This document shows, piece after piece, positions 10,094 to 57,360 of a stretch of 64,000 nucleotides of DNA (position 1 is its first letter; each line of letters begins with the position of its first letter). The stretch spans positions 167,397 to 231,396 of the forward strand of contig JAQTTB010000001.1 of the NCBI GenBank assembly GCA_028710985.1, in the 5' to 3' direction. The notes beneath the pieces are model-generated. The model searched no databases, was not told the origin of the DNA, and was given only the letters and a program-made list of their open reading frames with translations. Source of the DNA: Patescibacteria group bacterium. Lineage in GTDB: Bacteria; Patescibacteriota; Patescibacteriia; JAHJFT01. The translations under genes were made by a program, and so were the position numbers.

Positions 10094-12387
10094 TCTGCCG
10101 TAAATTCCTGCGTCCAATCCGGTAACTCCGGCGCATCCGCTGTTTCGAGAAGCTCGCGCCACTTCCCGTCAGTCAGCCGGTCGCTCATCGGCCATGGAAA
10201 TTCATAATAAGAGAATGCTCCGCCCTTCGCGATGCGAAGCGCGCCGTCGATTGGAACAATCACGAGGATCTCCGAAACATTACCCACGCCCTCCTCGAGA
10301 ACATAACCCCTCGGATCGGTTGCCACATCCGCGATAATCGCCGCCGGACGGTCATCGAGTTGCGACACGGATAATATACCTTCGTTGCGGAAGGCTTCGA
10401 TCCAGAAATGTTCCAGCTGGCCGCCGAACGAACGGATTATTTCATATTCATCATCAGTGAGAGATACATTCTCAAGTTCTTTTTCAGAAATCGTCTTGAG
10501 CGAGAGCGTCAGCTCTTCCATGCGCGCGAGATTATCCTGATTGTCATCGCTCAAAAGATCGCGAATATCTAAACCCTCGCGCGTCATTTTAGTAAGCGCG
10601 GCAAGGCGTGCGTAAACATACGGATTGGGTTCAACATAACCGCGGTCGTCAACCTGCTCCTGGGGCCCGCCGCCAAGTTCGGCATAAACCTGCTTGGCAT
10701 AAAGAATCGTATCATGCTTGAGTTCGGCCCATGATCCGAGGTAAGTATTGATCTCCTTGCGCGCCCACGCGAGATTGGTCATAAAAACCGGATATCCGTA
10801 ATCCTTCTTGCCCGTAAGCGGCAAAATTGAATAAAGCCAGCCCCAGTAAAGATTCTGCGTCCAGGTTTCGGCATCAAGCCCCTTGATATATTCCCTCATC
10901 TTGCCCATGTTTTCGGGATAATTTTCATATTTCGTTTCTCCCGCCTGCTGCAAGATGCTGTAAGCCTCGGCCGAACCCATTGCCGCCGGAATATCCAGGC
11001 CCTTGGGCAACATGCGGCGCGCGCCGTCCGGATTTTCCTTGACCTCGCGGTAAACAAGTCGCTGAAAAACCGACGCATCAAGCGTGAAGCGCTGGCCCAT
11101 GAACCGGAAACCCAAAATCTCGCGCTCGCGGTCCGGATTCAGGCTTTCGTCAAATATCGGAATTGAATTGATTTGCGGCGGGGCAAGCTTTTTTGCCCCC
11201 TCCCAGAAATTCATGAATTTGTTCTCGTCGCCGAGAATTCCCGCGCTGTCGGTTTCAAGCCCGTAGACCTGCTCCACGAGTTTACCGAGATCGTAAAAAG
11301 AAATATCATCGCTCTTTCCCACGAAGAAATTCGTGGGCTCGTAAATTCTCTCCCACACGTCTTTGTTGCTCTCGTTCATGAGTGCCACGGTGATAAGGAG
11401 CGCGGAACGTGTCTCATCGTCGCTCTTGAAACGAAAAGTCATCCGGCCATACCACATCATTGATTTAAAATATGCTTTTAGTTCCTCACTTCGATCATAA
11501 TGCCCGCGTGGAATATATTGCGAATAATCTTCTTCGAGATTTTCAACCGGATTAACCGGCGCCTGCTCGCCATCGCTACGCCCGCCTGCCATCGCCTGGC
11601 CGGCGTAGGCCTGGCGGGCAGGCTCAGGCGTTAGCGGGCGAGCGCCTGCGTTCATGAGCGGCGAAACCGCGATCCCCTGGTGCGCGGCGATGAGAGCGAG
11701 CTCGGCATTCACTAGGTCACTGACGTAATCCGGAGTCTCAATGCTCGAATCGAGCAGTTTGCTTCCAACCGCGAAAAATCCGACGCTCCTTTTTGCCGCG
11801 TTCTCCCAGGCGGTGCCGCGCAGATCCTCATACTGCTTTTCGCTCTCCGCGAGCATCAGGGCGTTGAGATTCTTGAGCTCGGCCGCAAGATACTCCTCCT
11901 CCACGGTTTTCAGGAGATGATCGAACAAGAGATGATAATTATGCAAAATCGAATCCGTGGTTACAAAATTCGGAATATTGTCATATCGGTTCGATTCATA
12001 CACTGAAAAAAATTCTTTATACGCGGCCGGAATAACCACAAAAGCATCCTTTGCAAGTAGCTCCTCGGCGCTTGAAGAAAATTCAAATTTGTCCCGGTTG
12101 GTGATATTGGCAAAATCCGCTTCAACGGCGTAAATCGGCACCCGGGCGGTAAAACTGACCGGCACGGCCTCATAGTCCGCGAAACGCGACGCCACGGCAA
12201 CCGGCGGTTCAACCAAATCGCCGATCGCGTCGCCGATATTCTGGATGATGTCCCCGGTTTTTCCGCCGGATGAATAATTCGCCAGATACAAATAAACGCC
12301 CGCGCCCGCTAATCCAACAAGGGCGACGATCAAAATTATTAAAATCACGTTTACTCCGCGGCTCTTTTTTGCTTTTTGTTTGGGCAT
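10090..12387 (-). CDS. Large membrane-anchored hypothetical protein (765 aa)
   Basis: Long ORF with an N-terminal Lys-rich segment and TM helix (NVILIILIVALVGLAGAGVYLYLA), a Gly/Ala-rich linker, and 4 nt overlap with the downstream CapA start. No confident family assignment from sequence alone. Confidence 0.55.
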   Translation of the reverse strand: MPKQKAKKSRGVNVILIILIVALVGLAGAGVYLYLANYSSGGKTGDIIQNIGDAIGDLVEPPVAVASRFADYEAVPVSFTARVPIYAVEADFANITNRDKFEFSSSAEELLAKDAFVVIPAAYKEFFSVYESNRYDNIPNFVTTDSILHNYHLLFDHLLKTVEEEYLAAELKNLNALMLAESEKQYEDLRGTAWENAAKRSVGFFAVGSKLLDSSIETPDYVSDLVNAELALIAAHQGIAVSPLMNAGARPLTPEPARQAYAGQAMAGGRSDGEQAPVNPVENLEEDYSQYIPRGHYDRSEELKAYFKSMMWYGRMTFRFKSDDETRSALLITVALMNESNKDVWERIYEPTNFFVGKSDDISFYDLGKLVEQVYGLETDSAGILGDENKFMNFWEGAKKLAPPQINSIPIFDESLNPDREREILGFRFMGQRFTLDASVFQRLVYREVKENPDGARRMLPKGLDIPAAMGSAEAYSILQQAGETKYENYPENMGKMREYIKGLDAETWTQNLYWGWLYSILPLTGKKDYGYPVFMTNLAWARKEINTYLGSWAELKHDTILYAKQVYAELGGGPQEQVDDRGYVEPNPYVYARLAALTKMTREGLDIRDLLSDDNQDNLARMEELTLSLKTISEKELENVSLTDDEYEIIRSFGGQLEHFWIEAFRNEGILSVSQLDDRPAAIIADVATDPRGYVLEEGVGNVSEILVIVPIDGALRIAKGGAFSYYEFPWPMSDRLTDGKWRELLETADAPELPDWTQEFTAE

Positions 12388-12453
12388 ACTGTTTTTATTA
12401 ATTTTTCAAAATGTCTGGAATGGTCGCACAGTCCAATTTGGGACTTGCAAAAG

Positions 12454-13086
12454 CTAAATATTTTCTATTCTTTTATAACAAGTTAATTCGGCACCCTCAA
12501 TCTGAAAAGATTTTTCAAATTTAATTGCATCAGATTTATAAAAGGCTTCTCCGTCGAATGAAGGATCGTGAATTACTATCTCATCACCATTAATATCTAA
12601 TATAACCACCCTATGCAAAGAATAACGCGGCGGTTCTTCACCATATATTACCCATGGGTCTAGCATAACATCACAAACATAGTCTTTAGAAAAAAAATCC
12701 TTCAGCAAGGACACTGTCGGCTTTTGATAATAAAATTTAAAATTCTTACTTGCCAATAAATACTTAAGATCAACTTGATATTCGGCGGGATTAGCGATTC
12801 TATCGTTTAAAAAAATAAACGCCTTGGGGTCAATGTCTTCCCGAAATTTTGAGAATCCATCTTTCGCCCAAGTATTATAATTATTCTCACTAAAATCCAC
12901 AATCTCAACATCATTCTTTTCCACTAAAAACTTCCAAAAAGGAGCGAATCCTATTTCAGATTTTGTAATTTTTAAGATATCCTCCAGTGAATAATGCAAG
13001 CCCAGGGCATTCGCCACCATCGTGAAGTCTGCCGACGCGCAAGATGTTTCATCGATTTGTTTAATTTGAAGAATATTATATTTCAT
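12454..13086 (-). CDS. Papain-like cysteine peptidase domain protein (C39-like, putative)
   Basis: Very AT-rich ORF. A candidate Cys nucleophile sits in ETSCASADFTMVANALG (compare C39 NDCGxAxLAMI). A downstream HRVVILDINGDEIVIHDP motif is a candidate His/Asp region. No signal peptide. Confidence 0.4.
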   Translation of the reverse strand: MKYNILQIKQIDETSCASADFTMVANALGLHYSLEDILKITKSEIGFAPFWKFLVEKNDVEIVDFSENNYNTWAKDGFSKFREDIDPKAFIFLNDRIANPAEYQVDLKYLLASKNFKFYYQKPTVSLLKDFFSKDYVCDVMLDPWVIYGEEPPRYSLHRVVILDINGDEIVIHDPSFDGEAFYKSDAIKFEKSFQIEGAELTCYKRIENI

Positions 13087-13148
13087 TGTCTAAACCAATC
13101 AAATAATATAGTATATTAAGTGTATATTATATAAATTACAGCAAAACA

Positions 13149-14186
13149 ATGAAAAAATCAATGGAAGCAATATCTTTAAAGTGGGTAAGCCCTTTTTGGT
13201 ATTTAGGCTGTGATCAAAATTGCCAAGAATGTTTTATAGGTGAAAAAAATCGCGTAATTACTAATCTAGATATCAGGAAAAAAGCGATAGATACTCTGGC
13301 AAATAATAAAACCGAGGAAATTTTTTTATGTGGTGGTAACCCGATATTAGATCCGTTTATTGAAAAAACAGTTGAATATATCAAAACAAAAAAAATTTTA
13401 GTCGAGCTATTGAGCAACAGCTGGGATATTAATGGAAATAAATCTATAAAAAATAAAGAAAAATTTCTTCGTAATATTGATGATAGGGCCGCTACCTTTT
13501 GGGGAGGAGATGCTCAGACTCATGACAAAATATGCGGCTGCGTTGGCTCTTTTTCTAGATTAATGAATAACTTGGAAAAAATTTCCCGACAAGGATATCC
13601 TGTAATCTGTATTTTAAATGTCGTGCCGCAAAATAAAAATGACATTTATAAAACAATTAAAGAACTTAAAAGTAAAATTAATATAACTAAAGTCTGGTTG
13701 CAAAGAATATTCCCATATGGCAATGCGCTGCAAAGTGATTCTTCGACAATTTCGTTGCGACCTAATGATTTTAATTTAATTTTGAAACAATTAGTTAAGG
13801 CAAAGAATGATTTCAATTTAACGGATATATCTCTTGATTCAACTCCGCCTTTCTGCATGGTTGATAAAAAGTATTTCCAACTTATAGAAACATATAAGAG
13901 AGGGCTTTCGTTTTGGGCCTTAGATTATAAATGTAGATTATTTGGGGAATCTTTTGATGTTATAAATCCAGAATTTGCCCTGTTTGATGGAAAACCAATT
14001 TATGAAGTTGATAATCTGATCAATACAATCAAAAAAGATCCCCGAACGCAAGAGATCTTTGCCAAAAAATATTTACCCGAGAAATGCAAAATATGTGATA
14101 TCGATGAATGCTTCGGCGGATATTTAGTAAGAGATAAAGACGGACAATTAATAGTTGACCCCGTTCTATCAAAAAATTTAAGCTAA
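13149..14186 (+). CDS. Radical SAM enzyme with C-terminal SPASM-like Cys cluster (peptide-maturase-like)
   Basis: CDQNCQEC is the CX3CX2C radical-SAM motif near the N-terminus. FLCGGNPILDP is a GGEP-like SAM-binding motif. The C-terminus has CKICDIDECFGG plus earlier Cys (CMVD, CRLFG), consistent with SPASM/twitch auxiliary clusters. ~30% GC. Confidence 0.7.
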   Translation: MKKSMEAISLKWVSPFWYLGCDQNCQECFIGEKNRVITNLDIRKKAIDTLANNKTEEIFLCGGNPILDPFIEKTVEYIKTKKILVELLSNSWDINGNKSIKNKEKFLRNIDDRAATFWGGDAQTHDKICGCVGSFSRLMNNLEKISRQGYPVICILNVVPQNKNDIYKTIKELKSKINITKVWLQRIFPYGNALQSDSSTISLRPNDFNLILKQLVKAKNDFNLTDISLDSTPPFCMVDKKYFQLIETYKRGLSFWALDYKCRLFGESFDVINPEFALFDGKPIYEVDNLINTIKKDPRTQEIFAKKYLPEKCKICDIDECFGGYLVRDKDGQLIVDPVLSKNLS

Positions 14187-14903
14187 TTTACCTCCATCTA
14201 CGGGAAGGCAAACTCCGTTTATATAACTAGCTTCCTCGCTTATAAAAAATGAAATGGTATTCACTATTTCTAATAAATCCGCCATCCTACCGATTGGGGT
14301 AGACTGTTCATAATTTATAATTTCCCTTTTAAATTCTTCTGTATTTTTTGAGTAAAATCTAGCGGCATTAATTGCCATACCTTTTCTACCTATAGCGGCG
14401 GGACAAATAGAATTGCAAGTAATATTATACTTAGCATACTCTTTAGCCATTGTTCTCGTCAGTCCATTTAAAGCAAACTTCGTTACGTTATATGAAACAG
14501 TATATTCATATCCTCTTAAACCATTGATTGAAGAGATATTAACAATTCTGCCCCAATTTTGTTTCATCATATGAGGCAACACTAGCTTAGAAATTTTAAA
14601 AGGAAGCATTAAGTTTACTTCAAATGCTTTACGCATCATTTCATCTTTAACAGTATGGGTTGCCCCTCCGAACGAGCCGACTCCGACTGCATTAATTACA
14701 ATATCAAAATTTTTGGGTACTTTTCTTATATCTAAGTCCACGACCTGGATTGGACGGGCAGAAAATTTTTTACCTAAAGCTCCTGCTTCTTTTTTTGAAC
14801 TGTTATAGGTAAATGATATCTCATATCGTTTCTTGAGAGAAAGGATCTCTAGCAATTCTTTACCTAAAGCACCAGTACCGCCGGTAATTAATATTTTTTT
14901 CAT
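14178..14903 (-). CDS. Short-chain dehydrogenase/reductase (SDR) family oxidoreductase
   Basis: The N-terminal ILITGGTGALGKEL is a Rossmann TGxxxGxG motif. Y-x3-K is in YNVTK. 241 aa, typical of classical SDRs. AT-rich like its two neighbours. Confidence 0.8.
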   Translation of the reverse strand: MKKILITGGTGALGKELLEILSLKKRYEISFTYNSSKKEAGALGKKFSARPIQVVDLDIRKVPKNFDIVINAVGVGSFGGATHTVKDEMMRKAFEVNLMLPFKISKLVLPHMMKQNWGRIVNISSINGLRGYEYTVSYNVTKFALNGLTRTMAKEYAKYNITCNSICPAAIGRKGMAINAARFYSKNTEEFKREIINYEQSTPIGRMADLLEIVNTISFFISEEASYINGVCLPVDGGKLA

Positions 14904-14960
14904 AAAAATTAATTAAATTTGTTTATAAATGAATTATACCATTTCTTACTGCTTAAACAC

Positions 14961-14988
14961 AAAAAATCGCCGTTTAGGCGATTTTTTT
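14961..14988. terminator. Bidirectional terminator (aaaaaatcgccgtttaggcgattttttt)
   Basis: Hairpin atcgcc-gttta-ggcgat flanked by A6 and T7, lying between the SDR gene start region and tRNA-Pro. Confidence 0.6.
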
Positions 14989-15023
14989 AACTACTCGAGT
15001 CTCTAGATAAAAAAGTCTTTTAA

Positions 15024-15096
15024 TCGGGCTGACCGGACTCGAACCGGCGACCTTACCCACCCCAAGGGTACGCGCTACCAACTGCGCTACAGCCCG
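15024..15096 (-). tRNA. tRNA-Pro (anticodon GGG)
   Basis: Reverse complement: CGGGCTG-TA-GCGC-AGTTGGTA-GCGC-G-TACCC-TTGGGGT-GGGTA-AGGTC-GCCGG-TTCGAGT-CCGGT-CAGCCCG-A. A clean cloverleaf, 73 nt, with no encoded CCA. Confidence 0.8.
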
Positions 15097-15126
15097 GCAA
15101 AATATTATCGAAATGCTTTATTTTAG

Positions 15127-15185
15127 TCCCGACTTCCGCGAAGCGGAACGTCGGGGCGCTACAGCCTGCCTGCCCGCTAGGCAGG
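15127..15185. repeat. Two adjacent dispersed hairpin repeats: family A (cccgacttccgcgaagcggaacgtcggg) and family B (cctgcctgcccgctaggcagg)
   Basis: Family A recurs at 27771..27803. Family B recurs at 399..418 (inverted) and 45015..45034. Confidence 0.75.
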
Positions 15186-15262
15186 CCCGCTGATACAATA
15201 CGAGATTACCATCTTAAGTGCGGTTTGTAAACAAATTTGACATTAGAAAAAGCCTCCTTATT

Positions 15263-15306
15263 GTAGGGCTGTGCCGCGATACGAAACTCGTACCGCCGCA
15301 CAGCCC
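15263..15306. repeat. REP-like palindrome GTAGGGCTGTGCCGCG...CGCCGCACAGCCC
   Basis: Long GC-rich inverted repeat beginning with the GTAGGG head shared with the other REP copies. Confidence 0.6.
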
Positions 15307-15453
15307 TTAATAAAGAGGCCTGGAATCGAGGGGGTCGGAGGCAAGCCCCAATAATGGGTGCCGAAATCGGCAAAATGCTCGCTCCCCCTCCTCAATTACA
15401 TTAAAAAATATAATTGATTGGGGTTTGCGTCAACGTACATTATCCACAGCGTC

Positions 15454-33274: not shown

Positions 33275-33577
33275 TCACTGTGTTCTGGCTCCCCTCAGCT
33301 TCTTGAACTGATGCGGCCAGCAACGTTTGCTGCCATTGAAAGTCGACAGGACCGTACCGCATCCCGGAAAATCGCATCGGCGACCGGGAGGAAACGTCTT
33401 CTGCGTTCCGCCGATCGTTGACGCGAGTCCGCGCGTACCTCGCCGCACTGCCGTTGCGTACCGTGCAACCACCGAGTCCTCTCCTCTCATGCCACCTCCC
33501 TGACCCGTCGCTCGCGAGTGACGGGTCGCTGACCCCAAAAAAACGGGGCGCTGTGTTTTATAAGGCAATTCTAGCAT
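33275..33577 (-). CDS. GC-rich Cys-rich small protein with a CPxCG-type zinc-ribbon-like motif (100 aa)
   Basis: RCDFPGCGTVLSTFNGSKRCWPHQF fits C-x4-C ... C-x2-H, suggesting a zinc-binding element. ~63% GC. Confidence 0.4.
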   Translation of the reverse strand: MLELPYKTQRPVFLGSATRHSRATGQGGGMRGEDSVVARYATAVRRGTRGLASTIGGTQKTFPPGRRCDFPGCGTVLSTFNGSKRCWPHQFKKLRGARTQ

Positions 33578-33685
33578 AAATTACGATTTTGTCAAGTAGG
33601 GGCGACTCGCGAGTCGCCCCTACTTGACGATTAATAAATATTTCTCTACAATAAGCTTAAATTTTAGTCTCGTCCGCTTTGCCTT

Positions 33686-33759
33686 GCGCCCATAGCTCAG
33701 TTTGGTAGAGCAGTTGCCTCTTAAGCAAACGGTCGTGGGTTCAAATCCCTCTGGGCGCA
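33686..33759 (+). tRNA. tRNA-Lys (anticodon CTT)
   Basis: GCGCCCA-TA-GCTC-AGTTTGGTA-GAGC-A-GTTGC-CTCTTAA-GCAAA-CGGTC-GTGGG-TTCAAAT-CCCTC-TGGGCGC-A. The acceptor and D/T loops are canonical. There is one mismatch each in the anticodon stem and the T stem. Confidence 0.6.
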
Positions 33760-33827
33760 GAGCAAAGCCGGACGGAAAAAAACAAAGAGGCATGTGCAAT
33801 CGACTGATAAATTATTAAATACAGCCT

Positions 33828-35540
33828 ATGGCAAATATAAGCATCGATGTAAGAAAAAAAACGATACAAGAACTTATCGACGACGAAATTCCGTCAGGCA
33901 GATATTGGTTACCATCTTTTCAGCGACAATATGTTTGGGATGCAGACAATGTCAAGGAGTTGCTCGATTCTATTGTACGTAATTATCCGATAGGAGCAAC
34001 CATACTTTGGAAGCCATCGCCAGAAGTTGCTTCCGACATTGATCCAACGTCCGTCCCGTTGGTTGATAGTGCACCCTCAAATACTACAGATAGGTATTTC
34101 GTTATTGACGGACAGCAACGCACTACCTCTCTGCTTCTTCTTTTCAACGACTGGGCAGTAGTGCGCGGCGGCGAGAGAATAACATGCGACCCCATCGCAT
34201 ACGACCCCACGTCCGATAAATTTATTAAGCACCGAAATAGGGGCATCGATTGCTCAAAAATTGTAAAGGCATTCTGCCGTCATGATGTTGAAACACTCAC
34301 TGAGTTAAATAATAACTATAACGCAGACGACTTCAACAAAATACGCGCAATAGCACAAAAAATCCTAGAGTATCCAATACCTCAATATGTTATGGAAACT
34401 TCAGGAGAAGCAACGGAAAGAGAAGATATATTTTCTCGAATGGCAGAGGCATTTGTGCGCATTAATAAAGAAGGTCTGAGAATAGGGAATGTCGAACTTA
34501 TGCTTTCTTTCTTGGCCGGAACGTTAAGCGGTGAGTTAAAAACACGAGTTGTACAACTATACCAAGAGTATGAAAAACGTGATGCATTTATACAACCTAT
34601 CATCCGCTCCGTATTCTCTAATTTTGGACTCTCACAAACGCAATTAGCGAAACCGAAACAATTTAAAGCCAATATTGAACGAATTAGAGAAATCTCTACC
34701 GACGATATAGCTAGGCGACTCAATACGAGCAGTAGAGCGCTTCAGCTTACTTTCAATTTCATTGAAAAAGAATTTGGTATGAGAAGTGCGCGTCTGATTC
34801 CTTCTCAAACAACTTTAATTCCGCTAGCGACATATTTTTCAAAAGTAAGTTTTGAGAAACTCGAGGAAATGCCCGCAGAAGATCGCGAGCGCATGACTTC
34901 TTGGTTTATGCTGGCAAATCTGAATGGACATTATAGCTCCAGCGTGGACACACGGTTGAGCCGTGATATCAAGATGATTCAAGATATGAGTAGCTTCCCC
35001 TTTCTTGAAATGCAAACCGCTATGAAAGTAAGAAAACACATCAATCTCGAATGGATTCAGGATGGGTTAGAAAGAAGTGCATTACGAGAAGCAAACAAAG
35101 CATTTGTTTTTTTGCTTTATGTTCTACTTATTAAAAATAATGCTGACGATTGGGATACGCGCTTAATCGCTTCACGCGATCTGAAAGAGTTAGAGCGACA
35201 TCACATTTTTCCAAAAGAATATTTAAGACAAGAACTAGAGCTCGATGATGTCGAGGACCCCGCAGAGGCGGAAATTGAGGTAAGCAACCTCGCGAACATT
35301 ACCTTTATTTTAAAAGAAAAAAACTCTACAATCGGTGATACGCCACCTAAGGATTACCTGCCACAGCTCATAGATCGAGCAAAATTACATTTTATCCCCG
35401 AAGACGAGAATCTATGGACCAAAGAAGCGTATGATAGTGGTCTATTCCAAAATGCACGCCTTCAAATTATCTTTGAAGCCGCGCTGAAACATTTTCCTGA
35501 CGTTTTCAAGATAGAATTATGTGATAAAGAAACCCAGTAA
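33828..35540 (+). CDS. GmrSD-like type IV restriction endonuclease (DUF262 ParB-like NTPase domain + DUF1524 HNH-like nuclease domain)
   Basis: The N-terminus YWLPSFQRQYVWD is the DUF262 DGQQR-type motif; VIDGQQRTTSL is also present. The C-terminus HHIFPKEYL is a DUF1524 His-Me finger motif. 570 aa, AT-rich, directly 3' of a tRNA. Confidence 0.8.
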   Translation: MANISIDVRKKTIQELIDDEIPSGRYWLPSFQRQYVWDADNVKELLDSIVRNYPIGATILWKPSPEVASDIDPTSVPLVDSAPSNTTDRYFVIDGQQRTTSLLLLFNDWAVVRGGERITCDPIAYDPTSDKFIKHRNRGIDCSKIVKAFCRHDVETLTELNNNYNADDFNKIRAIAQKILEYPIPQYVMETSGEATEREDIFSRMAEAFVRINKEGLRIGNVELMLSFLAGTLSGELKTRVVQLYQEYEKRDAFIQPIIRSVFSNFGLSQTQLAKPKQFKANIERIREISTDDIARRLNTSSRALQLTFNFIEKEFGMRSARLIPSQTTLIPLATYFSKVSFEKLEEMPAEDRERMTSWFMLANLNGHYSSSVDTRLSRDIKMIQDMSSFPFLEMQTAMKVRKHINLEWIQDGLERSALREANKAFVFLLYVLLIKNNADDWDTRLIASRDLKELERHHIFPKEYLRQELELDDVEDPAEAEIEVSNLANITFILKEKNSTIGDTPPKDYLPQLIDRAKLHFIPEDENLWTKEAYDSGLFQNARLQIIFEAALKHFPDVFKIELCDKETQ

Positions 35541-35556
35541 ACAAAGCGAGTATCCT

Positions 35557-35865
35557 ATGAAAATCACACTCATCATTCTAATCATTATTTCTCTTCTCCT
35601 CGCCGCGACAATCGGCGGCGGCCTGATTTATTATCAAAATCAAATCAACGGGCTTAATGGTCAGATTGCCGAACAGCAAATCCGGCTCACGAATCTCGGA
35701 ACCCAGGTACTAGAAAAAGAGCAGGCCATCAGCGATCTCGGCTTGGCCGCCAATTCGTCAACCGAACAAATTGCCGAGCTCCAAACTCAAATTGAAGAAT
35801 TGAATAAAAAAATTCAAGAACTGGAAAAAGCCAAGCAAGAACTCGAACAGCAAAAAACGCGTTAA
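35557..35865 (+). CDS. Small membrane-anchored coiled-coil protein
   Basis: MKITLIILIIISLLLAATIGG is a TM helix, followed by heptad-rich segments (LQTQIEELNKKIQELEKAKQELEQ). Start moved to an internal ATG that does not overlap the GmrSD stop. Confidence 0.55.
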   Translation: MKITLIILIIISLLLAATIGGGLIYYQNQINGLNGQIAEQQIRLTNLGTQVLEKEQAISDLGLAANSSTEQIAELQTQIEELNKKIQELEKAKQELEQQKTR

Positions 35866-35869
35866 TACA

Positions 35870-35900
35870 AATTCCCCCGTCCACGGGGAATTTTTTATTT
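35870..35900 (+). terminator. Rho-independent terminator (ttcccccgtccacggggaa + T-run)
   Basis: 7 bp G/C stem with T6 tail, after the coiled-coil gene and before ruvB. Confidence 0.75.
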
Positions 35901-35940
35901 CTTGCGCTTTCCGAATATTCTTGATAACCTTTGAGATAGT

Positions 35941-36975
35941 ATGGCTGAATTCAATCTCAAATCCGACCGCCTTACCGATCCCAAAGAAACCGGCGAAGAC
36001 CGGAGTTTTGATATTTCCCTGCGGCCCAAGACGCTCGCCGATTTTGTCGGCCAGAATAAAATCAAGGAAAATCTGGATATTTTCATGCAGGCCGCGCGGC
36101 AAAGAAGCGAGCCCATCGAGCATGTTCTCCTCTACGGCAATCCCGGCCTCGGCAAAACCACTCTTGCGCACATCATCGCGCGCGAAATGGATTCGGATAT
36201 CAAGGTTACTTCCGGCCCGGCGCTTGAACGCGTCGGCGACCTCGCCGCCATTCTCACGAATCTTGAAGAAGGAGACATTCTTTTCATTGATGAAATCCAC
36301 CGCATGAACAAAACCATTGAAGAAATTCTTTATCCGGCCATGGAAGACTATGCCCTGGATATCATCATCGGCAAAGGCCCGAGCGCCCGCACCCTGCGAC
36401 TCGACCTCAAACGCTTTACCATCATCGGCGCGACCACTCGCATCTCTCTGCTTTCAGCGCCGCTCCGCGACCGCTTCGGCGCCACCTACCACCTAAATTA
36501 TTACGAACCCGAGGATATCGAAAAAATTATCGGACGGAACGCCCGCATTTTGAGCATCGATATTGACCCCGCGGCCGTCGGCCAGATCGCGTCGCGCTCC
36601 CGCCGCACTCCGCGCGTCGCCAACCGCCTGCTCCGCCGCGTGCGCGATTTTGCCCAGGTCAAATCGGATGGTAGAATAAATGATGAAGCGACCCGGGGCG
36701 CCCTCGCGCTCATGGAGGTTGACGAATACGGCCTTGACCAGGTTGACCGCAAAATGCTGGAAATTATTATCAGCAAATTTGCCGGCGGACCGGTCGGCCT
36801 CTCCACTCTCGCCGCCGCAACCGGTGAAGAAATCGCCACCATTGAAGAAATTTACGAACCATTCCTCATGCAAATCGGATTTCTCCAGCGCACACCGCGC
36901 GGCCGCACGGTCACCGAAGCCGCCTACCGCCACCTCGGCCTCAATCCCCCGAAAAATCAAACCTCACTCCTATGA
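35941..36975 (+). CDS. ruvB: Holliday junction branch migration ATPase RuvB
   Basis: [16 protein letters not shown] is Walker [10 protein letters not shown] is Walker B. The domain order is RuvB-specific. Confidence 0.95.
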
Positions 36976-48326: not shown

Positions 48327-48370
48327 TGAGATACAAAAAATCACCCTTACGGATGATTTTTTGATAATCC

Positions 48371-48484
48371 CGGCAATGACCTACTTTTCCGGACGCTAGG
48401 CGTCCAGTAACATCGGCGCTGGAGGGCTTAACTACCGTGTTCGATATGGGAACGGGTGTGGCCCCTCCGCGAAAATCACCAGGG
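48371..48484 (-). rRNA. rrf: 5S ribosomal RNA
   Basis: The reverse complement CCTGGTGATTTTCGCGGAGGGGCCACACCCGTTCCCATATCGAACACGGTAGTTAAGCCCTCCAGCGCCGATGTTACTGG... matches the 5S helix I/loop B/loop C consensus. Ends are approximate (+/-5 nt). Confidence 0.85.
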
Positions 48485-49011: not shown

Positions 49012-49780
49012 CATTCTGTTACTTTGCCAAACCACATCCGTTTTCAACCGGTGCTCTGTGGTGATTCCGACTTTCGTCGGAACTCTGCATGTCGCCATGC
49101 AGTTCGGACTATATCTTATCCCGATATATTTCGGAATTTCGGCATATAGTCTCTGAGGATTTCAAGGAATCTAATACAATTTTCTTATTAATTTTTCGGT
49201 ATTTACCGGCGCAATTCATACTGTAAGCAAAGCAAATAATTCTTTTAGCGCCATCAATGGTTGAGTGATCTGCATTCTCCATCATATCCACTATGCGCTT
49301 AAAAATTACCATTGCGTCATGTTTCTTTGAAATTAAAGGATACTTCTCGAAAAATGGAATTATCGTCTTTCTTAAGTCATTCCTATTTCTAACCACATAC
49401 ACCAGCGTATCATCTTTTTTATTTCGAGCGTGATTATTTTTGATATAGCCACAACCGAAATAATTTTTAATCGCTTCCAGAGTTTCTTTACGCAAATAAC
49501 TCTGATTTATGTGGAATTCAGGAATGAATTTAAGACCTGTTTTCATTTTTGCGTCTTTATAAATCGCAATATGAAAAGTTCCTTCGCCTTCAACGAAACC
49601 GGTAATATACCATGGATTTAGATTCTTCGATCTTTCCTGCTGATTATCTGCACTCATCACTTTTTTACTTTAATATATATATTATATCAAAGTAGTGTGA
49701 GATTCACAAGCCTCACTCCTTTTTGAGGCTCTCCAGACTTTCCAGCATTTAGCCGAATTTATAGACAGCACGATCTTCAT
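49012..49780 (-). mobile_element. Group I intron in 23S rRNA at the I-CreI-type site (E. coli ~2593, after GAGACAGT)
   Basis: The 23S exon sequence GAACGTCGTGAGACAGT | TCGGTCTCCTATCCACCATGGGCG is split by 769 nt that contain a LAGLIDADG ORF. Confidence 0.8.
49109..49660 (-). CDS. LAGLIDADG homing endonuclease (single-motif, I-CreI-like)
   Basis: WYITGFVEGEGTF is a LAGLIDADG motif near the N-terminus. 183 aa, AT-rich, encoded entirely within the 23S intron. Confidence 0.8.
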   Translation of the reverse strand: MMSADNQQERSKNLNPWYITGFVEGEGTFHIAIYKDAKMKTGLKFIPEFHINQSYLRKETLEAIKNYFGCGYIKNNHARNKKDDTLVYVVRNRNDLRKTIIPFFEKYPLISKKHDAMVIFKRIVDMMENADHSTIDGAKRIICFAYSMNCAGKYRKINKKIVLDSLKSSETICRNSEIYRDKI

Positions 49781-49824
<44 letters not shown>

Positions 49825-49837
49825 TGGCGAACAGCCA

Positions 49838-49893
<56 letters not shown>

Positions 49894-50002
49894 TCTCCGT
49901 CGTCGATATGGACTCTTGGACGGAATCAGCCTGTTATCCCCGGAGTAGCTTTTATCCGTTGAGCTCCCGCCGTCCTACTTCGAACGGTCGGATCACTAAC
50001 TT

Positions 50003-50034
<32 letters not shown>

Positions 50035-50382
50035 GCAGTAAAGCCGACTTATGCGTTTGCACTTTCAGCCCGATTTCCATCCGGGCCAAGTCGACCTTTG
50101 TAAACGCCTCCGTTACTTTTTAGGAGGCAACCGCCCCAGTTAAACTACCCACCAGTTACTGTCTCCCAAACCGGATTCACGGTTCGAGATTAGAATACAC
50201 ACAACACAAGGGTGGTATCTCACTGTTGTCCCGAAGGACTCCCACCTATTCTGAACATGCGGAGCATGTATCCAATAACAAGTTATAGTAAAGCTTCACG
50301 GGGTCTTTTCGTCCAGCCATGGGTAAATCGCATCTTCACGACTCTTGTAATTTCACCGAGTCCCTCGTTGAGACAGTCCCCC

Positions 50383-50413
<31 letters not shown>

Positions 50414-50415
50414 CG

Positions 50416-50461
<46 letters not shown>

Positions 50462-51267
50462 GCGTTCATCCGCGCTTAAGATCAAGGCTTTTCCCGAAGG
50501 ATAACCTCTCCCCTTAACGTTCGGACACTGGCCAGGCATCAGCCCCTATACATCACCTTACGGTTTAGCAGGGACCTGTGTTTTTGGTAAACAGTCGCTA
50601 GGAATACTTTAGCTGCGCCCCAACACGAGGTTGGGGAGGCTTTATCCCGAAGTTACAGCCGCTTATTTGCAGAGTTCCTAAACGAGGGTTCTCTCGTACG
50701 CCTTGGCACACTTATGCCCACCCACCTGTGTCGGTTTACAGTACGGATACCTAAAAGTTTAATGCTAGAGGCTTTTCTTGGCTCCACGTCTTCTCATATT
50801 GGCCGGTATTACCAGCCTTTAGATCGCCTGCGGCCTGATGGCCCGCGGATTTACCTGCGGACCGGCGCGCAAACGCCCTACGCATATAACCAAAATACGC
50901 TAGAGATTTCGGGAAGCGTCCCCCCATCGCGCTCTTAGGTAGTGCAGGAATATTAACCTGCTCATCCATCGGTTACGCCTTTCGGCCTCACCTTAGGACC
51001 GACTAACCCTGGGACGAAGGTCGTTGCCCAGGAAACCTTGGGTTTACGGCGGAGAGGATTCTCACCTCTCTTTTTGTTACTAATGCCAACATTCTCTCTT
51101 CTCATCGCTCCACCGAACCTCACAGTTCGACTTCAACGCAATGAGAACGCTCCTCTACCACTCGCTCCGATAAATCGGAACGAATTCTCGTCTTCGGTAC
51201 TAAGTTTTAGCCCCGAAATATTTTCGGCGCAAAGCAACTTGACCAGTGAGCTGTTACGCTATCTTTA

Positions 51268-51305
<38 letters not shown>

Positions 51306-52813
51306 AGTCGCTCCACAGCCTTTCACACTTAACCTAGATTTTGGGACCTTAGACGGAGATCTGGGCTTTTTCCCTTTCGACTAATGGAGCTTAGCCCCCA
51401 CAGTCTGACTGCCAGGAACACTTTACGGTATTCGGAGTTTGGTTAGGAGGAGTAGATTTCTCCCTCCGTCCCATTCAGTGCTCTACCCCCGTAAAGCTAT
51501 TAACTGACGCTAGCCCTAAAGCTATCTCGAGGAGAACCAGCTATTACCGAGTTCGATTGGAATTTCTCCGCTATCCACAACTCATCCCCGCGTGTTGCAC
51601 GGCGCGTGAGTTCGGGCCTCCATTCCGCCTTCGCGGAACTTCACCCTGGTCATGGATAGGTCACCCGGTTTCGGGTCTTGCATGCGCTACCATAGACGCC
51701 CGTTAAGGCTCGCTTTCACTATGGCTCCGCCCCCGCAGGGGCTTAACCGGCAACGCATGACAAACTCGTTGGCTCATTCTTCAATAGGAATGCCGTCACC
51801 CCGACTTGCGTCGGGGCTCCGACTTTTTGTAAGCACACGGTTTCAGATACTGTTTCATCTCCCTTCCGGGATGCTTTTCAACTTTCCCTCGCGGTACTTG
51901 TTCACTATCGATCACAAGAAGTATTTAGTCTTGCCACATAGTCGTGGCTGATTCCCACAGGATTTCACGAGTCCCGTGGTACTCTAGGTTGAATGCTATA
52001 AATAGAGATCCCCTTTCGCGTACAGGGCTATCACCTTCTTTGGCTCCGCTTTCCAGCGGATTCTACTAGGGAAGATCGCTTTATTTACCAAGGCTTGCAA
52101 GCGCCTTGAACGCAAACACCCGCAACCCCCCGCAGACATATGGTCTTGCAACCTTAGGCGCAAACTCTATTTCACCCGAAGGTGTCACTTTGTTCACGCT
52201 TGGTCTGCGAGGTTTGGACTGATCCCTTTTCGCTCGCCACTACTCAGGGAATGGGCTGACCGATAAGTATCCGGCTCGCAAGATACGAGCCAAATACTTA
52301 AGGCCAGCATTGTTTTCTGTTCCTCTGGCTACTGAGATGTTTCACTTCGCCAGGTTGCCTTCTTGCACCTATGTATTCAGTGCAAAATATCCCATTCTTC
52401 CAATGGGATGGGTTTCCCCATTCGGATATCCCCGGGTCAAAGGTTGCTTGCCACCTAACCGAGGCTTTTCGCAGGCTGCTACGTCCTTCATCGTCTTCTT
52501 ATGTCGAGTCATCCTCCGTGCGCTCTTCGTGCTTCTACAACCATTTAAACTTTTTAGTTCAAATGGCACGTACAAGATTTTAATGATGCTATTTACTCGT
52601 CATTATTAAATTGTCAATGTTCACTTGGCCTTGTGGCCAAACCCTGTTCGTCTGGTCGCAAGTGAGTCAAAAAACCGCCCGGTCGTGTCCAAGCGGTGCG
52701 AAAACAAGCATTAAAACTGCGTCAACTGATTGGACACGTATTTGATTGGCTTGAAACTCTCATATTTTAGCGAAAAAATGCTCTTTTTATGATAATTATT
52801 TTAAACTGCCCAT

Positions 52814-54000: not shown

Positions 54001-56424
54001 ATGAGAACCATCACAATCGCGCTAATCATCGTTATCACACTGCCGACATTTTTATTTATTCAAAATATTCCCGCGCGCGCCGAGGAAGCGCCGCGCGTGA
54101 TAATTAATGAGATTTTCTGGAGCGGCTCATCGCTTTCTATTGCCGATGAGTTCATCGAGCTCTACAATACCACGAATGAACCGATTGATATAAGCGGCTG
54201 GGAAATTGCCGGCGCGGCCACAAATAAAAATTCGTTAATTCTTCCAGTGAATTCCACCATTTCGGCGCTGGGATTTTTTGTTGTCGCCAATTATTCACCG
54301 GCCAACGAAAAATCAATTTTAAATATTGAGGCGGATTATCTTTCCGCTTCGATATCGCTCGCCAACTCGGACGCGTATTATGCCCTTCGCGGCCCCGATG
54401 GCGCAACCGTTGACGCGGCGGATGACGGCATGGGAGCGCCGTTCTCTGGCGACAATGAAAACAAGGCCTCAATGGCCCGTCGTCCCGGTTGCTGGAATGG
54501 TGGCGCTGGGGAATGTTGGTTTACAGCCACTTCCTCAGCGAATATCAAGCCCGAAAACACCGATCTCGCGACTCCGGGCGCTGACAATGCTTACGTTGAA
54601 CCGCCCATCGAGCCACCCGCCGATCCTCCGGCCGATCCGCCATCCGTCGACCCGGTCGATCCGGCAAATCCAGTTGATACACCCGCCACGACGCCTCTTG
54701 TCCTACCGCCAAAAATTTTAATCAATGAAATTTTACCCAATCCAGCCGAAGGTAGTGAATGGATTGAACTTTTTAATCCCACAACTTCAACCGCCGATCT
54801 CGCCGGCTGGTCACTCGAGGACGGCGCCGGACGAATCGCAAGTCTCTCCGGCGAGATTGAACCCGGCTACTGGCTATACGTCCTGAATTCAGCAAAACTA
54901 AATAACGGCGGCGATAAAATATATATCGAATATAATGAACAAATCATTGATCGGGTCGCTTACGGAAATTGGCAAGACGAGGATGTAGGCGACAATGCTC
55001 CATGCCCGGGCCGGGGCCAGTCCCTGGCCCGGTCTCCCGCGGCCGCGGACACGGATAATGACTTTCAGGATTTTAAAATCACCACCGCGCCCACGCCCGG
55101 GAGAGAAAACCAAATCAGCGCGCCCGAACCAGAATCCGAGCCCGAACCTCAGCCGACTACAACAACGATTGTTACTCCCGAAACGCCAATCATCACTCCG
55201 GAAACCTCAACCGCAACAATCGAAGTGCCCATATCTCAACCATTGAATTTCGCTTCCGGCACCATGATCATCACCGAATTCATGAGCAATCCCCCTTCCG
55301 GCGGCGTGGAATGGATTGAAATCTATAATCCTAGCACGCAAAAAATTATTTTGGATAGCTGGCACATCACTGACGAACGCGGCACTCCCACAAATCTTAG
55401 CGGTGAAATAAATTCGTTCGAATATTTGCCAATCTTTGCGCCGCGCGGCCGGCTGAATAATGACGGCGACATTATTTCCATATTTGATCCGTCCGGCGGT
55501 TTGATTGACCGCGTTGATTATCTTACCGATCTCTCTTCTCCGCCCAAGGGCGCAAGCCTGGCCCGGATGGATCCGGGCGTCTGGCAGGTGAGCGAAGCGC
55601 CGACTCCAGGCGGTGAGAACATCTCCGCCCCGCTGGCCGAAGAATCCGCCGAATCGGAAAAAAAGGCCGAGCCTGGCAAATCCAAACTCAATGCGACAGT
55701 CCAGCCGCAAGAATCCGGATTTGACGAAGCCTACGAATGGCAAGTCGGGGACAAAATAATCCTTAAAGCATTCGTTGCGACCGCGCCCGGGCATTTCTCG
55801 GGACAATATTTTTTTGCCGGCGACGAAGAAGGCCACGGCGTTCAGATATATTCATACCGCAAAGATTTTCCCGAACTCAAAGTCGGCGATTATATTGAGA
55901 TTAACGGCGAACTATCGCAATTTAAGAATATTTGGCGCATCAAAATAAAAACAAAAGACGATATTGCGATAATCGATTCCGGTCAAATCAAAGCAATTGA
56001 ACTCAGCATTTCGGAAATCGGCTCGGAGAACATCGGCGGCCTAGTAAAAATTAGCGGCGAAATTACCGAAGCCAAAAAATCATACTTTTATCTCGATGAC
56101 GGCGCCGAAATAAAAGTTGGCCTGGCAAAAAATAGAACAAAGAACTCATCCACTCTTGAAATTGGCGCGCGCGCTTCAGCGACCGGAATTCTGCTTGCAA
56201 CCGAAGACGGATTTTTCTTAGAAACACGCGAATTAAATGATATTCTGGTTTTCAATGAAGATAAGCCGGCGCCGGCGGCGACTGAGAATAGTCCGGCCGC
56301 AACATCCGAGCGCAAACGCTCAAATTACGCCGGCCTTATCCCCCTCGGCATCCTGGTCGCCGCCGGCGCCGCAAACATCAAAAAATTAAAAAAATTAATA
56401 AAAAATAAAAAGGAGGGAATATGA
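54001..56424 (+). CDS. Large secreted multi-LTD (lamin tail domain) protein with C-terminal membrane anchor
   Basis: Start taken at the ATG with an AGGAGGA SD (the track used an upstream TTG at 53971). Signal peptide MRTITIALIIVITLPTFLF. Three LTD-like modules: VIINEIFWSGSS..DEFIELYNTT, ILINEILPNPAEGSEWIELFNPT and MIITEFMSNPPSGGVEWIEIYNPS. Pro/Thr-rich linkers. C-terminal TM LIPLGILVAAGAA plus a basic tail. Confidence 0.75.
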   Translation: MRTITIALIIVITLPTFLFIQNIPARAEEAPRVIINEIFWSGSSLSIADEFIELYNTTNEPIDISGWEIAGAATNKNSLILPVNSTISALGFFVVANYSPANEKSILNIEADYLSASISLANSDAYYALRGPDGATVDAADDGMGAPFSGDNENKASMARRPGCWNGGAGECWFTATSSANIKPENTDLATPGADNAYVEPPIEPPADPPADPPSVDPVDPANPVDTPATTPLVLPPKILINEILPNPAEGSEWIELFNPTTSTADLAGWSLEDGAGRIASLSGEIEPGYWLYVLNSAKLNNGGDKIYIEYNEQIIDRVAYGNWQDEDVGDNAPCPGRGQSLARSPAAADTDNDFQDFKITTAPTPGRENQISAPEPESEPEPQPTTTTIVTPETPIITPETSTATIEVPISQPLNFASGTMIITEFMSNPPSGGVEWIEIYNPSTQKIILDSWHITDERGTPTNLSGEINSFEYLPIFAPRGRLNNDGDIISIFDPSGGLIDRVDYLTDLSSPPKGASLARMDPGVWQVSEAPTPGGENISAPLAEESAESEKKAEPGKSKLNATVQPQESGFDEAYEWQVGDKIILKAFVATAPGHFSGQYFFAGDEEGHGVQIYSYRKDFPELKVGDYIEINGELSQFKNIWRIKIKTKDDIAIIDSGQIKAIELSISEIGSENIGGLVKISGEITEAKKSYFYLDDGAEIKVGLAKNRTKNSSTLEIGARASATGILLATEDGFFLETRELNDILVFNEDKPAPAATENSPAATSERKRSNYAGLIPLGILVAAGAANIKKLKKLIKNKKEGI

Positions 56425-56909
56425 AAAAATTTAAACGCCAATCGCTTCCTGGTGACACCTGCTTTGTTACTGCCGTAACCAAGGGCCGCGAACCACTTCT
56501 TGCTGAACGAAAAAATATTATTCTTTTTCAACAAACCATGAAAGAAGTTCAGGCCATAAAAAATGTAAAAATTATCTCTTACGTTATTTTGCCGGATCAT
56601 ATTCACTTGATACTCTCTTGCGAATTTTACTCGGTCCCGGAAATTCTTCACTCTCTGGAATGGGGTTTCTCTAACAATTGGCGCCTTTTGCATCCCGCCG
56701 CCGAACTGCCGAATGCCAATCCCTGGCAATCGCGCGTCTGGGAGCACGTCATCCAAAGCGACGCTGAGCTGCAGTATCATATTAATTACATTATTAATAA
56801 TCCGGTGAAGCACGGCTTTGTCGACGATCCCGAAGACTGGCCATATTCTTCGTTCGCTCAGAATGTCTGCGATTATGATGCCTGGCAAGAGATGGAGCCG
56901 ATTGCCTAA
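56421..56909 (+). CDS. REP-associated tyrosine transposase (RAYT, IS200/IS605-like TnpA_REP)
   Basis: Has the HuH motif LPDHIHLIL and the catalytic Tyr motif YHINYIINNPVKHGFV, as in the TnpA_REP family. 162 aa. ATGA overlap with the preceding gene. Confidence 0.8.
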   Translation: MKKFKRQSLPGDTCFVTAVTKGREPLLAERKNIILFQQTMKEVQAIKNVKIISYVILPDHIHLILSCEFYSVPEILHSLEWGFSNNWRLLHPAAELPNANPWQSRVWEHVIQSDAELQYHINYIINNPVKHGFVDDPEDWPYSSFAQNVCDYDAWQEMEPIA

Positions 56910-56970
56910 AATACCTACCAAATTTTGAATTACAAATTTCGAATTTTGATTCAATTTTGAATAATAAATT

Positions 56971-57360
56971 ATGATTAATAAAAATAAAATATATAATTTG
57001 GAAGAAAGAACGGCGGTTATGGGTATTGACACAATCAAAATGTGTAAAAATATTAAACACGATATAATAATAAATCCTCTAATATCACAGCTCATACGTT
57101 CAGCTACCAGCGTTGGTGCGAATTATATGGAAGCAAATTCCGCATCTTCTAAGCGTGATTTTGTAAATAAAATCTTCATTTGCAAAAAAGAATCGCAAGA
57201 AACTATGCATTGGCTCCGCATGATCAGCGAATGTTGTCCAGAAAAAAGCAAAGAAATCTCACAATTGCGTCAAGAGATGCATGAATTAATATTAATATTT
57301 GGGAGAATAATTGCAACTATAAAAAATAGGGTAAATTCGAAACTCCAAAATCAAAATTAA
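56971..57360 (+). CDS. Four-helix-bundle protein (TIGR02436, '23S rRNA intervening-sequence protein' family)
   Basis: LIRSATSVGANYMEANSASSKRDFVNKIFICKKESQETMHWLRMI matches the family signature (RSAxSIxxNIAEG...DF..KL.IAxKEAxET.YWL.L). AT-rich. Confidence 0.7.
   Translation: MINKNKIYNLEERTAVMGIDTIKMCKNIKHDIIINPLISQLIRSATSVGANYMEANSASSKRDFVNKIFICKKESQETMHWLRMISECCPEKSKEISQLRQEMHELILIFGRIIATIKNRVNSKLQNQN

Follow-up and report, generated by a model that had tools for sequence, protein, structure and literature searches.

A three-gene island for a radical-SAM enzyme, a C39-like protein and a short-chain reductase in a Patescibacteria genome: RiPP-like enzymes at a locus that lacks RiPP cluster features

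Does a small island encoding a radical S-adenosylmethionine (rSAM) enzyme, a C39-like peptidase-fold protein and a short-chain dehydrogenase/reductase (SDR) make up a pathway for a peptide made on the ribosome and then modified post-translationally (RiPP), or do these enzymes act on something else? The question is raised by a 64,000-nucleotide stretch from a Patescibacteria group bacterium (assembly GCA_028710985.1, contig JAQTTB010000001.1, positions 167,397 to 231,396), hereafter the window, in which a preliminary description made from the sequence alone had noted an AT-rich three-gene block beside a tRNA-Pro gene and proposed a possible RiPP-type modification cassette. Combinations of SPASM/twitch rSAM enzymes with C39 peptidases are routinely interpreted as RiPP clusters, and the module studied here has those hallmarks without a precursor, a RiPP precursor recognition element (RRE) or an exporter. 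In this study we show that its enzymes resemble RiPP tailoring enzymes, but that the defining features of a RiPP gene cluster are missing at the locus. We lean tentatively towards a mobile tailoring module whose substrate is already present in the recipient.

The island comprises the C39-like gene (12454..13086, minus strand, 210 aa), the rSAM gene (13149..14186, plus strand, 345 aa) and the SDR gene (14178..14903, minus strand, 241 aa). All three are intact open reading frames (ORFs) with all catalytic residues kept, as the preliminary description had placed them; the rSAM and SDR genes are convergent and their 3' ends overlap by 9 bp.

The rSAM enzyme scores 40 bits with PF04055, above the cutoff of 29.5, and 25 bits with Fer4_12; PF04055 is also matched by 16/16 relatives (best E-value 7.6e-17). 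NCBIfam returned no equivalog; the top model is HxsC, whose 38.9 bits fall short of its cutoff of 267.9, and numerous SPASM-group maturases come next with 20-36 bits. When 16 family members are aligned, with identities down to 46%, the motifs C21x3C25x2C28, G62-G63-N64-P65 and C313x2C316x4C321 are present and invariant, as is C236; C262 is not conserved, being Ser or Gly in four members. The rSAM assignment and the CX3CX2C and GGxP motifs of the preliminary description are thus borne out.

The preliminary description had further taken the C-terminal Cys cluster as typical of SPASM/twitch maturases. The cluster is present and invariant, but membership in SPASM proper is rejected: four invariant C-terminal Cys are found instead of seven, and the SPASM hidden Markov model (PF13186) matches none of the 16 family members at E<=10. 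No SPASM-family model of NCBIfam reaches its cutoff for the enzyme either. SPASM has been defined as a seven-Cys motif, CX9-15GX4C-gap-CX2CX5CX3C-gap-C, with two auxiliary clusters, and twitch as its truncated form, with one auxiliary cluster and a beta-hairpin followed by alpha2' (PMC6231123). In the window protein the C-terminal spacing is CX2CX4C, lacking both the CX3C and the terminal Cys. The predicted structure displays a hairpin (255-258/263-265) followed by helices, with one Cys before the hairpin and the CX2CX4C after the helices. When the published definitions are applied to the four invariant C-terminal Cys, the enzyme is, at the level of sequence and predicted fold, twitch-like rather than SPASM, with ligands sufficient for one auxiliary Fe-S cluster. 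As CX3CX2C starts at residue 21, the 20 residues ahead of it leave no space for an N-terminal RRE, and none was found there.

The nearest folds of the rSAM model are SPASM/twitch enzymes such as SuiB, SkfB and anSME. With the values of the fold comparison in brackets, the neighbours are SuiB (25.9, 302), SkfB (24.6, 276), anSME (22.8, 301), ChlB (21.9, 289), CteB (21.6, 293), viperin (21.1, 244), BlsE (20.9, 257) and PqqE (20.3, 278), the five best being peptide- or protein-acting enzymes. At the sequence level the similarity to any solved enzyme is at most 30 bits. Concerning the start of the gene, the public call P0001 (341 aa) apparently begins at the second ATG (Met5, 13161); the MKKS(I/M)E N-terminus kept in rSAM relatives favours the first ATG at 13149.

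The C39-like protein is less well covered by sequence models. Its match to Pfam Peptidase_C39 is marginal (26 bits, cutoff 22), a precomputed PF03412 match exists in only 2/18 relatives, and a PDB sequence search, profile included, gave no match. Its structural model (predicted local distance difference test, pLDDT, 90.9) has a C39-like papain fold, whose neighbours are PeiR (15.1), 3erv, named "C39-like peptidase" (14.8), LahT150 (14.1), PCAT1 (13.4), the ComA peptidase domain (12.9) and Alr0975 (12.4). The papain-fold acyltransferases CtaG and CcbD are also among the matches, and the closest structural relatives cleave peptide or isopeptide bonds. C16, which lies in an "ETSCASA" motif, H158, H173, D174 and P175 are invariant among members only 37-41% identical, and C16, H158 and H173 are kept even in relatives 22-32% identical; a Rickettsiales gene call seemingly without the Cys is a truncated call, in which an upstream ATG restores it. 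Alignment and model together identify a papain-like fold with predicted catalytic residues Cys16, His158 and Asp174, in keeping with the C39-like Cys/His arrangement noticed earlier.

Because the catalytic Cys is residue 16, the protein has no signal peptide. At the sixth residue ahead of the Cys, the Patescibacteria members retain a Gln where several alphaproteobacterial ones have Arg, and the model contains about 60 extra residues (helices ~70-112) between Cys and His. Standalone C39-like proteins that are more distant (about 210 aa, 22-32% identity; L015:1925-3562 and L017:6001-7028; related loci are referred to by such numbers) keep the Cys and His and have no rSAM partner; one has a Band_7 gene on one side and a 325-aa unknown on the other, and the second follows IleRS. 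The 325-aa neighbour was considered as an rSAM relative and proved unrelated, and the contexts of the distant C39-like relatives P0046 and P0048 offered neither an rSAM partner nor informative neighbours. These proteins suggest a wider, uncharacterised clade of cytoplasmic C39-like enzymes.

The third protein is, by its sequence, a classical FabG-like SDR with all signature residues present, which agrees with its earlier identification. It scores 118.6 bits with adh_short_C2 and 108.6 bits with adh_short in Pfam, and 132 bits with a FabG-like NCBIfam model whose equivalog cutoff is not reached. The motifs TGGTGALG, NAVG and S...YNVTK are found in the translation, and T7, G8, G14, N71, S125, Y138 and K142 are invariant. 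At L002:5063-7277 the orthologous SDR is missing and another FabG-like SDR (33% identity) adjoins the C39-like gene, with an AbiEii toxin gene alongside; the reductase there may have undergone non-orthologous replacement.

What would turn these enzymes into a RiPP cluster was searched for in the window, 64 kb of a genome of roughly 744 kb, and in related loci. The gaps around and between the island genes (66, 62 and 120 bp, the last from the SDR start to tRNA-Pro) hold no credible peptide ORF, as the preliminary description had observed. The wider precursor search, which that description had called for with short ORFs included, compared, all against all, 1,269 small ORFs that lie up to 5 kb from the module at 11 loci; it found no conserved small ORF outside the three genes, only three chance-level pairs (E ~0.008). 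No ABC exporter or immunity gene adjoins the module in the window or is conserved in the contexts of related loci; L013 has an unlinked ABC gene about 1.7 kb downstream. No standalone RRE occurs in the contexts of the loci beyond a faint, sub-threshold PqqD-like match in L012. The 101-aa ORF concerned was rejected as an RRE, since it reaches 16.4 bits against a PqqD cutoff of 23.4, has an EExxE...D pattern of MazG type and is found at this sole locus.

The module is rare and crosses phyla. The rSAM and C39-like families count about 20 clusters each in a database of 5.8 billion clusters; the rSAM profile collects 24 clusters before a sharp drop, and the C39-like protein has 39 representatives at E<=1e-3 among 1.84 billion, 3 of them at E<=1e-30. 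Five module loci were found in 185,579 species genomes and eight in 241 million metagenome records, and the carriers are Patescibacteria, among them one whose protein PHW53_00865 matches the window, and metagenome-assembled genomes of Rickettsiales or other Alphaproteobacteria. As judged by sequence, Pfam, NCBIfam, PADLOC and PHROGs contain no curated family that matches the rSAM subfamily, the C39-like clade or their fixed pairing, and a literature search on this gene combination found nothing relevant.

Gene presence and order were tabulated for 16 distinct loci. In 15 of them the C39-like gene adjoins the rSAM gene, divergently in 14 and co-directionally in L003, with 25-71 bp between the two among the relatives (62 bp in the window). 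The C39-like gene is wanting only in L006, where a 194-aa protein was rejected as a homolog (E = 90). An orthologous SDR is present in 10/16 loci and unscorable in two because of a contig end, and L002 has its different SDR on the other side of the pair; the SDR accompanies the pair despite changes of position and strand (L003 and L002 versus the others). Moreover, identities run in parallel, with 75/67/46/43/42/46% for the SDR and 77/65/48/46/47/42% for the rSAM enzyme, and dN/dS against L018 is 0.11-0.13 for all three genes, at a dS of 1.1-1.6 that is near saturation. On these values the trio co-diverges, with purifying selection acting on all three genes. The neighbours change from locus to locus (enolase/iPGM; ribosomal proteins/SecY/AbiEii; FtsK; AlaRS/GT8; Rho; integrase/OLD-ATPase), and the conserved unit is therefore the pair, usually plus the SDR.

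Some of these neighbourhoods deserve mention. Three alphaproteobacterial loci each carry a different phosphohydrolase gene immediately next to the module: a His_Phos_1 gene that overlaps the C39-like gene by 4 bp (L004:4860-5393), a HAD gene directly upstream of the rSAM gene (L006:1860-2483), and the above 101-aa MazG-like ORF directly downstream of the rSAM gene (L012:8057-8362). At L012:1-8510 the pair, there without SDR, stands amid a phage-type integrase, HTH_17, an OLD/TOPRIM ATPase, a 686-aa double-AAA ATPase and tRNA-Arg, -Ser and -Leu, a setting that looks like an integrative or defence island.

In the window the module clearly stands out in composition. GC is 0.31-0.34 over 12500-15000 and about 0.50 on either side; at 100-nt resolution it steps down at ~12350-12450 and up at ~14950-15000, and beyond 14950 it is 0.42-0.56. 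The island as a whole has a GC of 0.328 against 0.493 for the remaining window (z = -5.5 when compared with every other 2.6-kb window), a z of 6.0 is obtained for the tetranucleotide distance between it and the window background, and third-position GC is 0.27-0.32 in its three genes against 0.49-0.61 in ten host genes. The low GC and deviant codon usage described earlier therefore hold up, and in both GC and tetranucleotides the island is an outlier when compared with the remainder of the window. In relatives the GC of the module is close to that of its flanks (L001, 0.318 vs 0.336; L007, 0.301 vs 0.286; L003, 0.466 vs 0.484), so that the module is compositionally distinct from its surroundings only in the window copy. 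The island is at a tetranucleotide distance of 0.021-0.030 from the backgrounds of the low-GC Patescibacteria loci L001, L002 and L018, and of 0.048 from its own host. Furthermore, blastn joins window 12472-14904 to L018 6336-8756 in one collinear alignment (2,433 nt, 77% identity), and this alignment stops at the outer gene boundaries. A foreign origin of the island is strongly supported. Since it is an outlier only here and the L018 alignment ends at the outer gene boundaries, the sequence data support a recent transfer of exactly these three genes from what would be a low-GC Patescibacteria donor.

As to how the genes arrived, the preliminary description saw a bidirectional terminator and tRNA-Pro at the island end, and took the latter for an integration hotspot. 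Both elements are real. The tRNA-Pro(GGG) gene (15024..15096, minus strand; ARAGORN; Rfam tRNA, 65.7 bits) is a neighbouring host gene with its 3' end towards the island, and the hairpin (14961..14987) has the shape of an intrinsic terminator, with A- and T-runs, an 11-bp stem AAAAAATCGCC/GGCGATTTTTT, a 5-nt loop, a dG of -14 to -15 kcal/mol and folding z values of -3.6 and -2.9 on the two strands. Because it lies on the minus strand after the tRNA and before the SDR start, the hairpin is probably the terminator of tRNA-Pro itself, and hence on the host side. The hotspot proposal fared worse. The island, made up of the three enzyme genes only, contains no integrase, and a repeat search of island and flanks did not find the 3' end of tRNA-Pro repeated at the far boundary; an inverted match of 14 nt, rich in AT (12393-12406/14904-14917), was dismissed as a boundary repeat, being too weak and of low complexity. 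No tRNA was found within 3 kb of the module in L001, L002, L003, L004, L006, L007, L010, L013, L014, L020 or L022, in a scan that reached as far as each locus extends (L007 begins 60 bp from the module, which leaves its left flank uncovered). The expectation that the same cassette would sit beside tRNA genes in relatives was met only by L012 and L018, about the chance level at a tRNA density of 1 per 8 kb. With no integrase, no att-like repeat and an unconserved tRNA adjacency, integrase-mediated insertion at tRNA-Pro has no support. A search for an empty site by way of the flanking DUF3160 protein gave no exact record.

In L018, the relative that is closest among those sequenced and that belongs to the lineage of L007/L019, inverted repeats of about 125-165 nt (L018:6153-6317 and L018:9066-9189) bracket the three-gene module. 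They are composed of two palindromes, AGGGCGACCGTTGCGGTCGCCAT and TCGGAAGTCCGACTTCCGA; all four copies of TCGGAAGTCCGACTTCCGA in the 15-kb locus lie at the module edges, and the palindrome does not occur in the window. These repeats may form a bracket resembling a miniature inverted-repeat transposable element or terminal inverted repeats, hinting at movement of the module.

Around and between the genes, the left junction (12388..12453) runs from the start of the host DUF3160 gene to the C39-like stop, with GC falling from 0.48 to 0.34, and the right junction (14904..14960), which includes the SDR promoter region, has a GC of 0.24-0.25. The 62 bp between the C39-like and rSAM genes (13087..13148; GC 0.19) appear from their sequence to be a divergent promoter region, with promoter-like hexamers on both strands and a palindrome with an 11-bp stem at ~13106-13132 (hairpin z = -2.2). 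The flanking genes are ordinary host genes, with DUF3160 and PGA_cap on one side and a 154-aa ORF, NDK, an MBL-fold protein and ComEC on the other. Outside the island, two strong GC-rich hairpins upstream of tRNA-Pro (15110-15190; RNA folding z = -4.5) and an additional 20-nt inverted repeat (15265-15307) are found; these elements at 15100-15310 are probably host terminators or resemble repetitive extragenic palindromic (REP) sequences.

What, then, does the module do? Since it travels by itself between hosts as different as Patescibacteria and Rickettsiales-like Alphaproteobacteria, it most likely acts on a substrate that recipients already make. The explanation that we favour, tentatively, is a self-contained, horizontally mobile three-enzyme tailoring module acting in trans on an amide-containing substrate already in the recipient. 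Instead of a RiPP precursor of its own, the module would have as its substrate a protein or peptide that is conserved, or a metabolite that bears a peptide; the leaning towards a peptide-type substrate comes from the near-invariant partner, a peptidase-fold enzyme with an intact triad. By analogy with anSME and BtrN, the rSAM enzyme would abstract a hydrogen atom and use its auxiliary cluster as electron acceptor, giving an oxidised (carbonyl) or cross-linked product. The SDR could then reduce the carbonyl with NAD(P)H. For this step there are precedents in AprD4/AprD3, an rSAM enzyme with an NADPH reductase in apramycin biosynthesis (PMC5461906), and in ElxP/ElxO, a protease with a dehydrogenase in the RiPP pathway of epilancin 15X (PMC10652874). 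As for the C39-like protein, a cytoplasmic enzyme, it would act on an amide bond of that substrate, by cleavage or by transfer.

This explanation can be given a bolder form, which we consider doubtful: that of a precursor-less mobile system in which an RRE-less twitch-type rSAM enzyme and a C39-like hydrolase, usually with their own reductase, modify a universal target (a protein that is conserved, or a metabolite carrying a peptide, for instance a precursor of the cell wall), and are swapped as a plug-in trait among obligately host-associated or episymbiotic lineages, namely Patescibacteria and Rickettsiales-like Alphaproteobacteria.

Several observations weigh against a peptide-directed module of three enzymes. 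The SDR is absent in three loci (L006, L012 and L013) and may be accessory. The phosphohydrolases at L004, L006 and L012, three different and non-homologous proteins, may hint at a phosphorylated small-molecule substrate. Viperin-like enzymes are the second-best PDB matches of the rSAM enzyme by sequence, and within this rSAM subfamily similarity does not predict function (PMC6231123).

Much of this is accommodated by small-molecule tailoring, which we regard as possible, if somewhat unlikely. The rSAM enzyme would oxidise, dehydrate or deoxygenate a sugar, nucleotide or cofactor-type substrate, as do BtrN, AprD4, BlsE and viperin; the SDR would reduce a ketone, the papain-fold protein would be an amidase or acyltransferase in the manner of BtrH and CtaG, and phosphatases would finish the product in some hosts. 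The lack of RRE, precursor and exporter fits this scheme, as do the position of viperin and BlsE among the close structural neighbours, the AprD4/AprD3 precedent of an rSAM enzyme plus a reductase (PMC5461906) and the acyltransferases CtaG and CcbD; a universal metabolite would also explain why the module moves alone. Against it, the phosphohydrolases occur at one locus each and at none of the Patescibacteria loci, and the peptide- and protein-acting character of the five top rSAM neighbours, together with a near-invariant partner whose closest structural relatives cleave peptide or isopeptide bonds, points the other way. The SDR is of the classical FabG-like type and not extended, whereas NDP-sugar enzymes typically use an extended-type SDR.

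A classical RiPP cassette is unlikely. Here the precursor would be encoded elsewhere in the genome, the rSAM enzyme would modify it, the C39-like protein would trim it as a leader peptidase and the SDR would finish it. The enzyme types put forward in the preliminary description do fit: the rSAM fold is SPASM/twitch-like with RiPP maturases as best matches, the C39 fold lies near the double-glycine leader peptidases LahT150, PCAT1 and ComA, and epilancin offers a protease-plus-dehydrogenase precedent (PMC10652874). What is missing is all the rest, from a conserved small ORF near the module in the 11 loci to an RRE, for which there is no room before CX3CX2C, and an ABC exporter or immunity gene conserved across contexts. 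Moreover, the unit that moved is just three genes, so that a dedicated precursor would need a separate acquisition, which is unlikely, and the hosts are as far apart as Patescibacteria and Alphaproteobacteria.

An anti-phage or conflict module, in which a toxic product or a modified nucleotide would be formed by a viperin-like rSAM enzyme with the help of the SDR and the protease, on mobile or defence islands, is very improbable. The weak pVip matches in PADLOC (25.4 and 22.4 bits) are partial and reflect generic rSAM similarity; PADLOC has no model for the C39-like protein and gives noise only for the SDR, and PHROGs and a viral fold library return generic superfamily matches only. The rSAM family has four invariant C-terminal Cys, and viperins are not known to carry an auxiliary-cluster domain. 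The patchy and very rare distribution, typical of accessory genes, the recent import of the window copy, the AbiEii gene next to the module in L002 and the tRNA-rich region with integrase, HTH_17, OLD/TOPRIM ATPase and AAA ATPase around the L012 pair would suit a defence role, but most contexts are housekeeping genes (enolase/iPGM, ribosomal proteins/SecY, FtsK, Rho). Finally, a chance neighbourhood of three unrelated genes, or decaying cargo, in either case without a joint function, for which the loci lacking the SDR and the solitary rSAM gene of L006 could be quoted, is strongly disfavoured by the adjacency of the C39-like and rSAM genes in 15/16 loci of two phyla, by co-divergence at a dN/dS of ~0.11-0.13 and by intact frames and catalytic residues.

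Elsewhere in the window, a spacer of about 1.26 kb with a LAGLIDADG homing-endonuclease ORF (49109-49660, minus strand) lies between a 23S rRNA gene (49749-52539, minus strand; 2,791 nt, the model having 2,925 positions) and a 5S rRNA gene (48368-48483); no 16S rRNA gene was found in the window. As the Rfam 23S match is complete without the ORF, the latter lies in the spacer and not in an intron, which is unusual. GC is also lower (0.39-0.44) at 33500-36000, starting right after tRNA-Lys(CTT) (33685-33760); a protein of 570 aa encoded there (33828-35540) has a GmrSD_N domain and is of the type IV restriction type, and the region may be another acquired defence island next to a tRNA. In another low-GC patch (56325-57545; 0.35-0.39 at 56.5-57.5 kb), immediately ahead of tRNA-Gly (57470-57545), lies a 256-aa ORF (56325-57095, minus strand) for which Pfam has no match.

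Each of the three proteins falls into a known superfamily, and the interest of the module is that it is rare, cross-phylum and contradicts the usual RiPP inference: it is a bare two- to three-gene unit moving between phyla with tiny genomes. For genome mining, this is a caution against RiPP calls from enzyme content alone. If a universal target is true, the module would represent a new radical-SAM reaction, a new role for C39-type peptidases and a functional trait shared horizontally by Patescibacteria and Rickettsiales-like bacteria. The family is small (~24 clusters), and confident models or strong profile matches for all three proteins make it tractable for heterologous expression.

Compared with known systems, the rSAM enzyme shares with the twitch enzymes SkfB, BtrN and MoaA and with the SPASM enzymes SuiB, anSME, CteB and PqqE the partial TIM-barrel rSAM core, CX3CX2C and a GGxP-type motif, as well as a C-terminal beta-hairpin followed by helices and a Cys cluster containing CX2C. 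It differs from the SPASM enzymes in having C236...C313x2C316x4C321 instead of the seven-Cys motif, and from SuiB, SkfB and CteB in lacking their N-terminal RRE; in size and in the lack of an RRE it resembles anSME, which acts on whole proteins.

The C39-like protein has its catalytic Cys at the start of the N-terminal helix, in common with the double-glycine leader peptidase domains of ComA, LahT and PCAT1, and with the standalone C39-like proteins 3erv (PDB) and PeiR, the latter a pseudomurein endoisopeptidase. Further likenesses to C39 are the 16 residues that separate its His and Asp, a spacing that matches that of ComA, and the Gln ahead of the Cys in the Patescibacteria members. Unlike the C39 exporter domains, the window protein is standalone and cytoplasmic rather than fused to an ABC exporter, and it also differs from C39 in the ~60-residue insertion between Cys and His, in the replacement of the oxyanion Gln by Arg in several alphaproteobacterial members and in having no known double-glycine-leader substrate.

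At the level of the whole module, mycofactocin (MftC/MftE with coupled SDRs) and PQQ (PqqE) also combine an rSAM enzyme of the SPASM group with a peptidase and SDR-type oxidoreductases. The window SDR reaches 108.8 bits with the model of mycofactocin-coupled SDRs (cutoff 300) and the rSAM enzyme 27 bits with MftC (cutoff 265), scores far below the cutoffs; moreover, the peptidase fold is unrelated and there are no equivalents of MftA/MftB or PqqA/PqqD. AprD4/AprD3 and ElxP/ElxO come close in another respect, since in both an NAD(P)H reductase is genetically coupled to an rSAM enzyme or a peptidase and reduces a carbonyl made earlier. Those pairs are parts of large biosynthetic clusters with known substrates, whereas here the trio is the entire unit.

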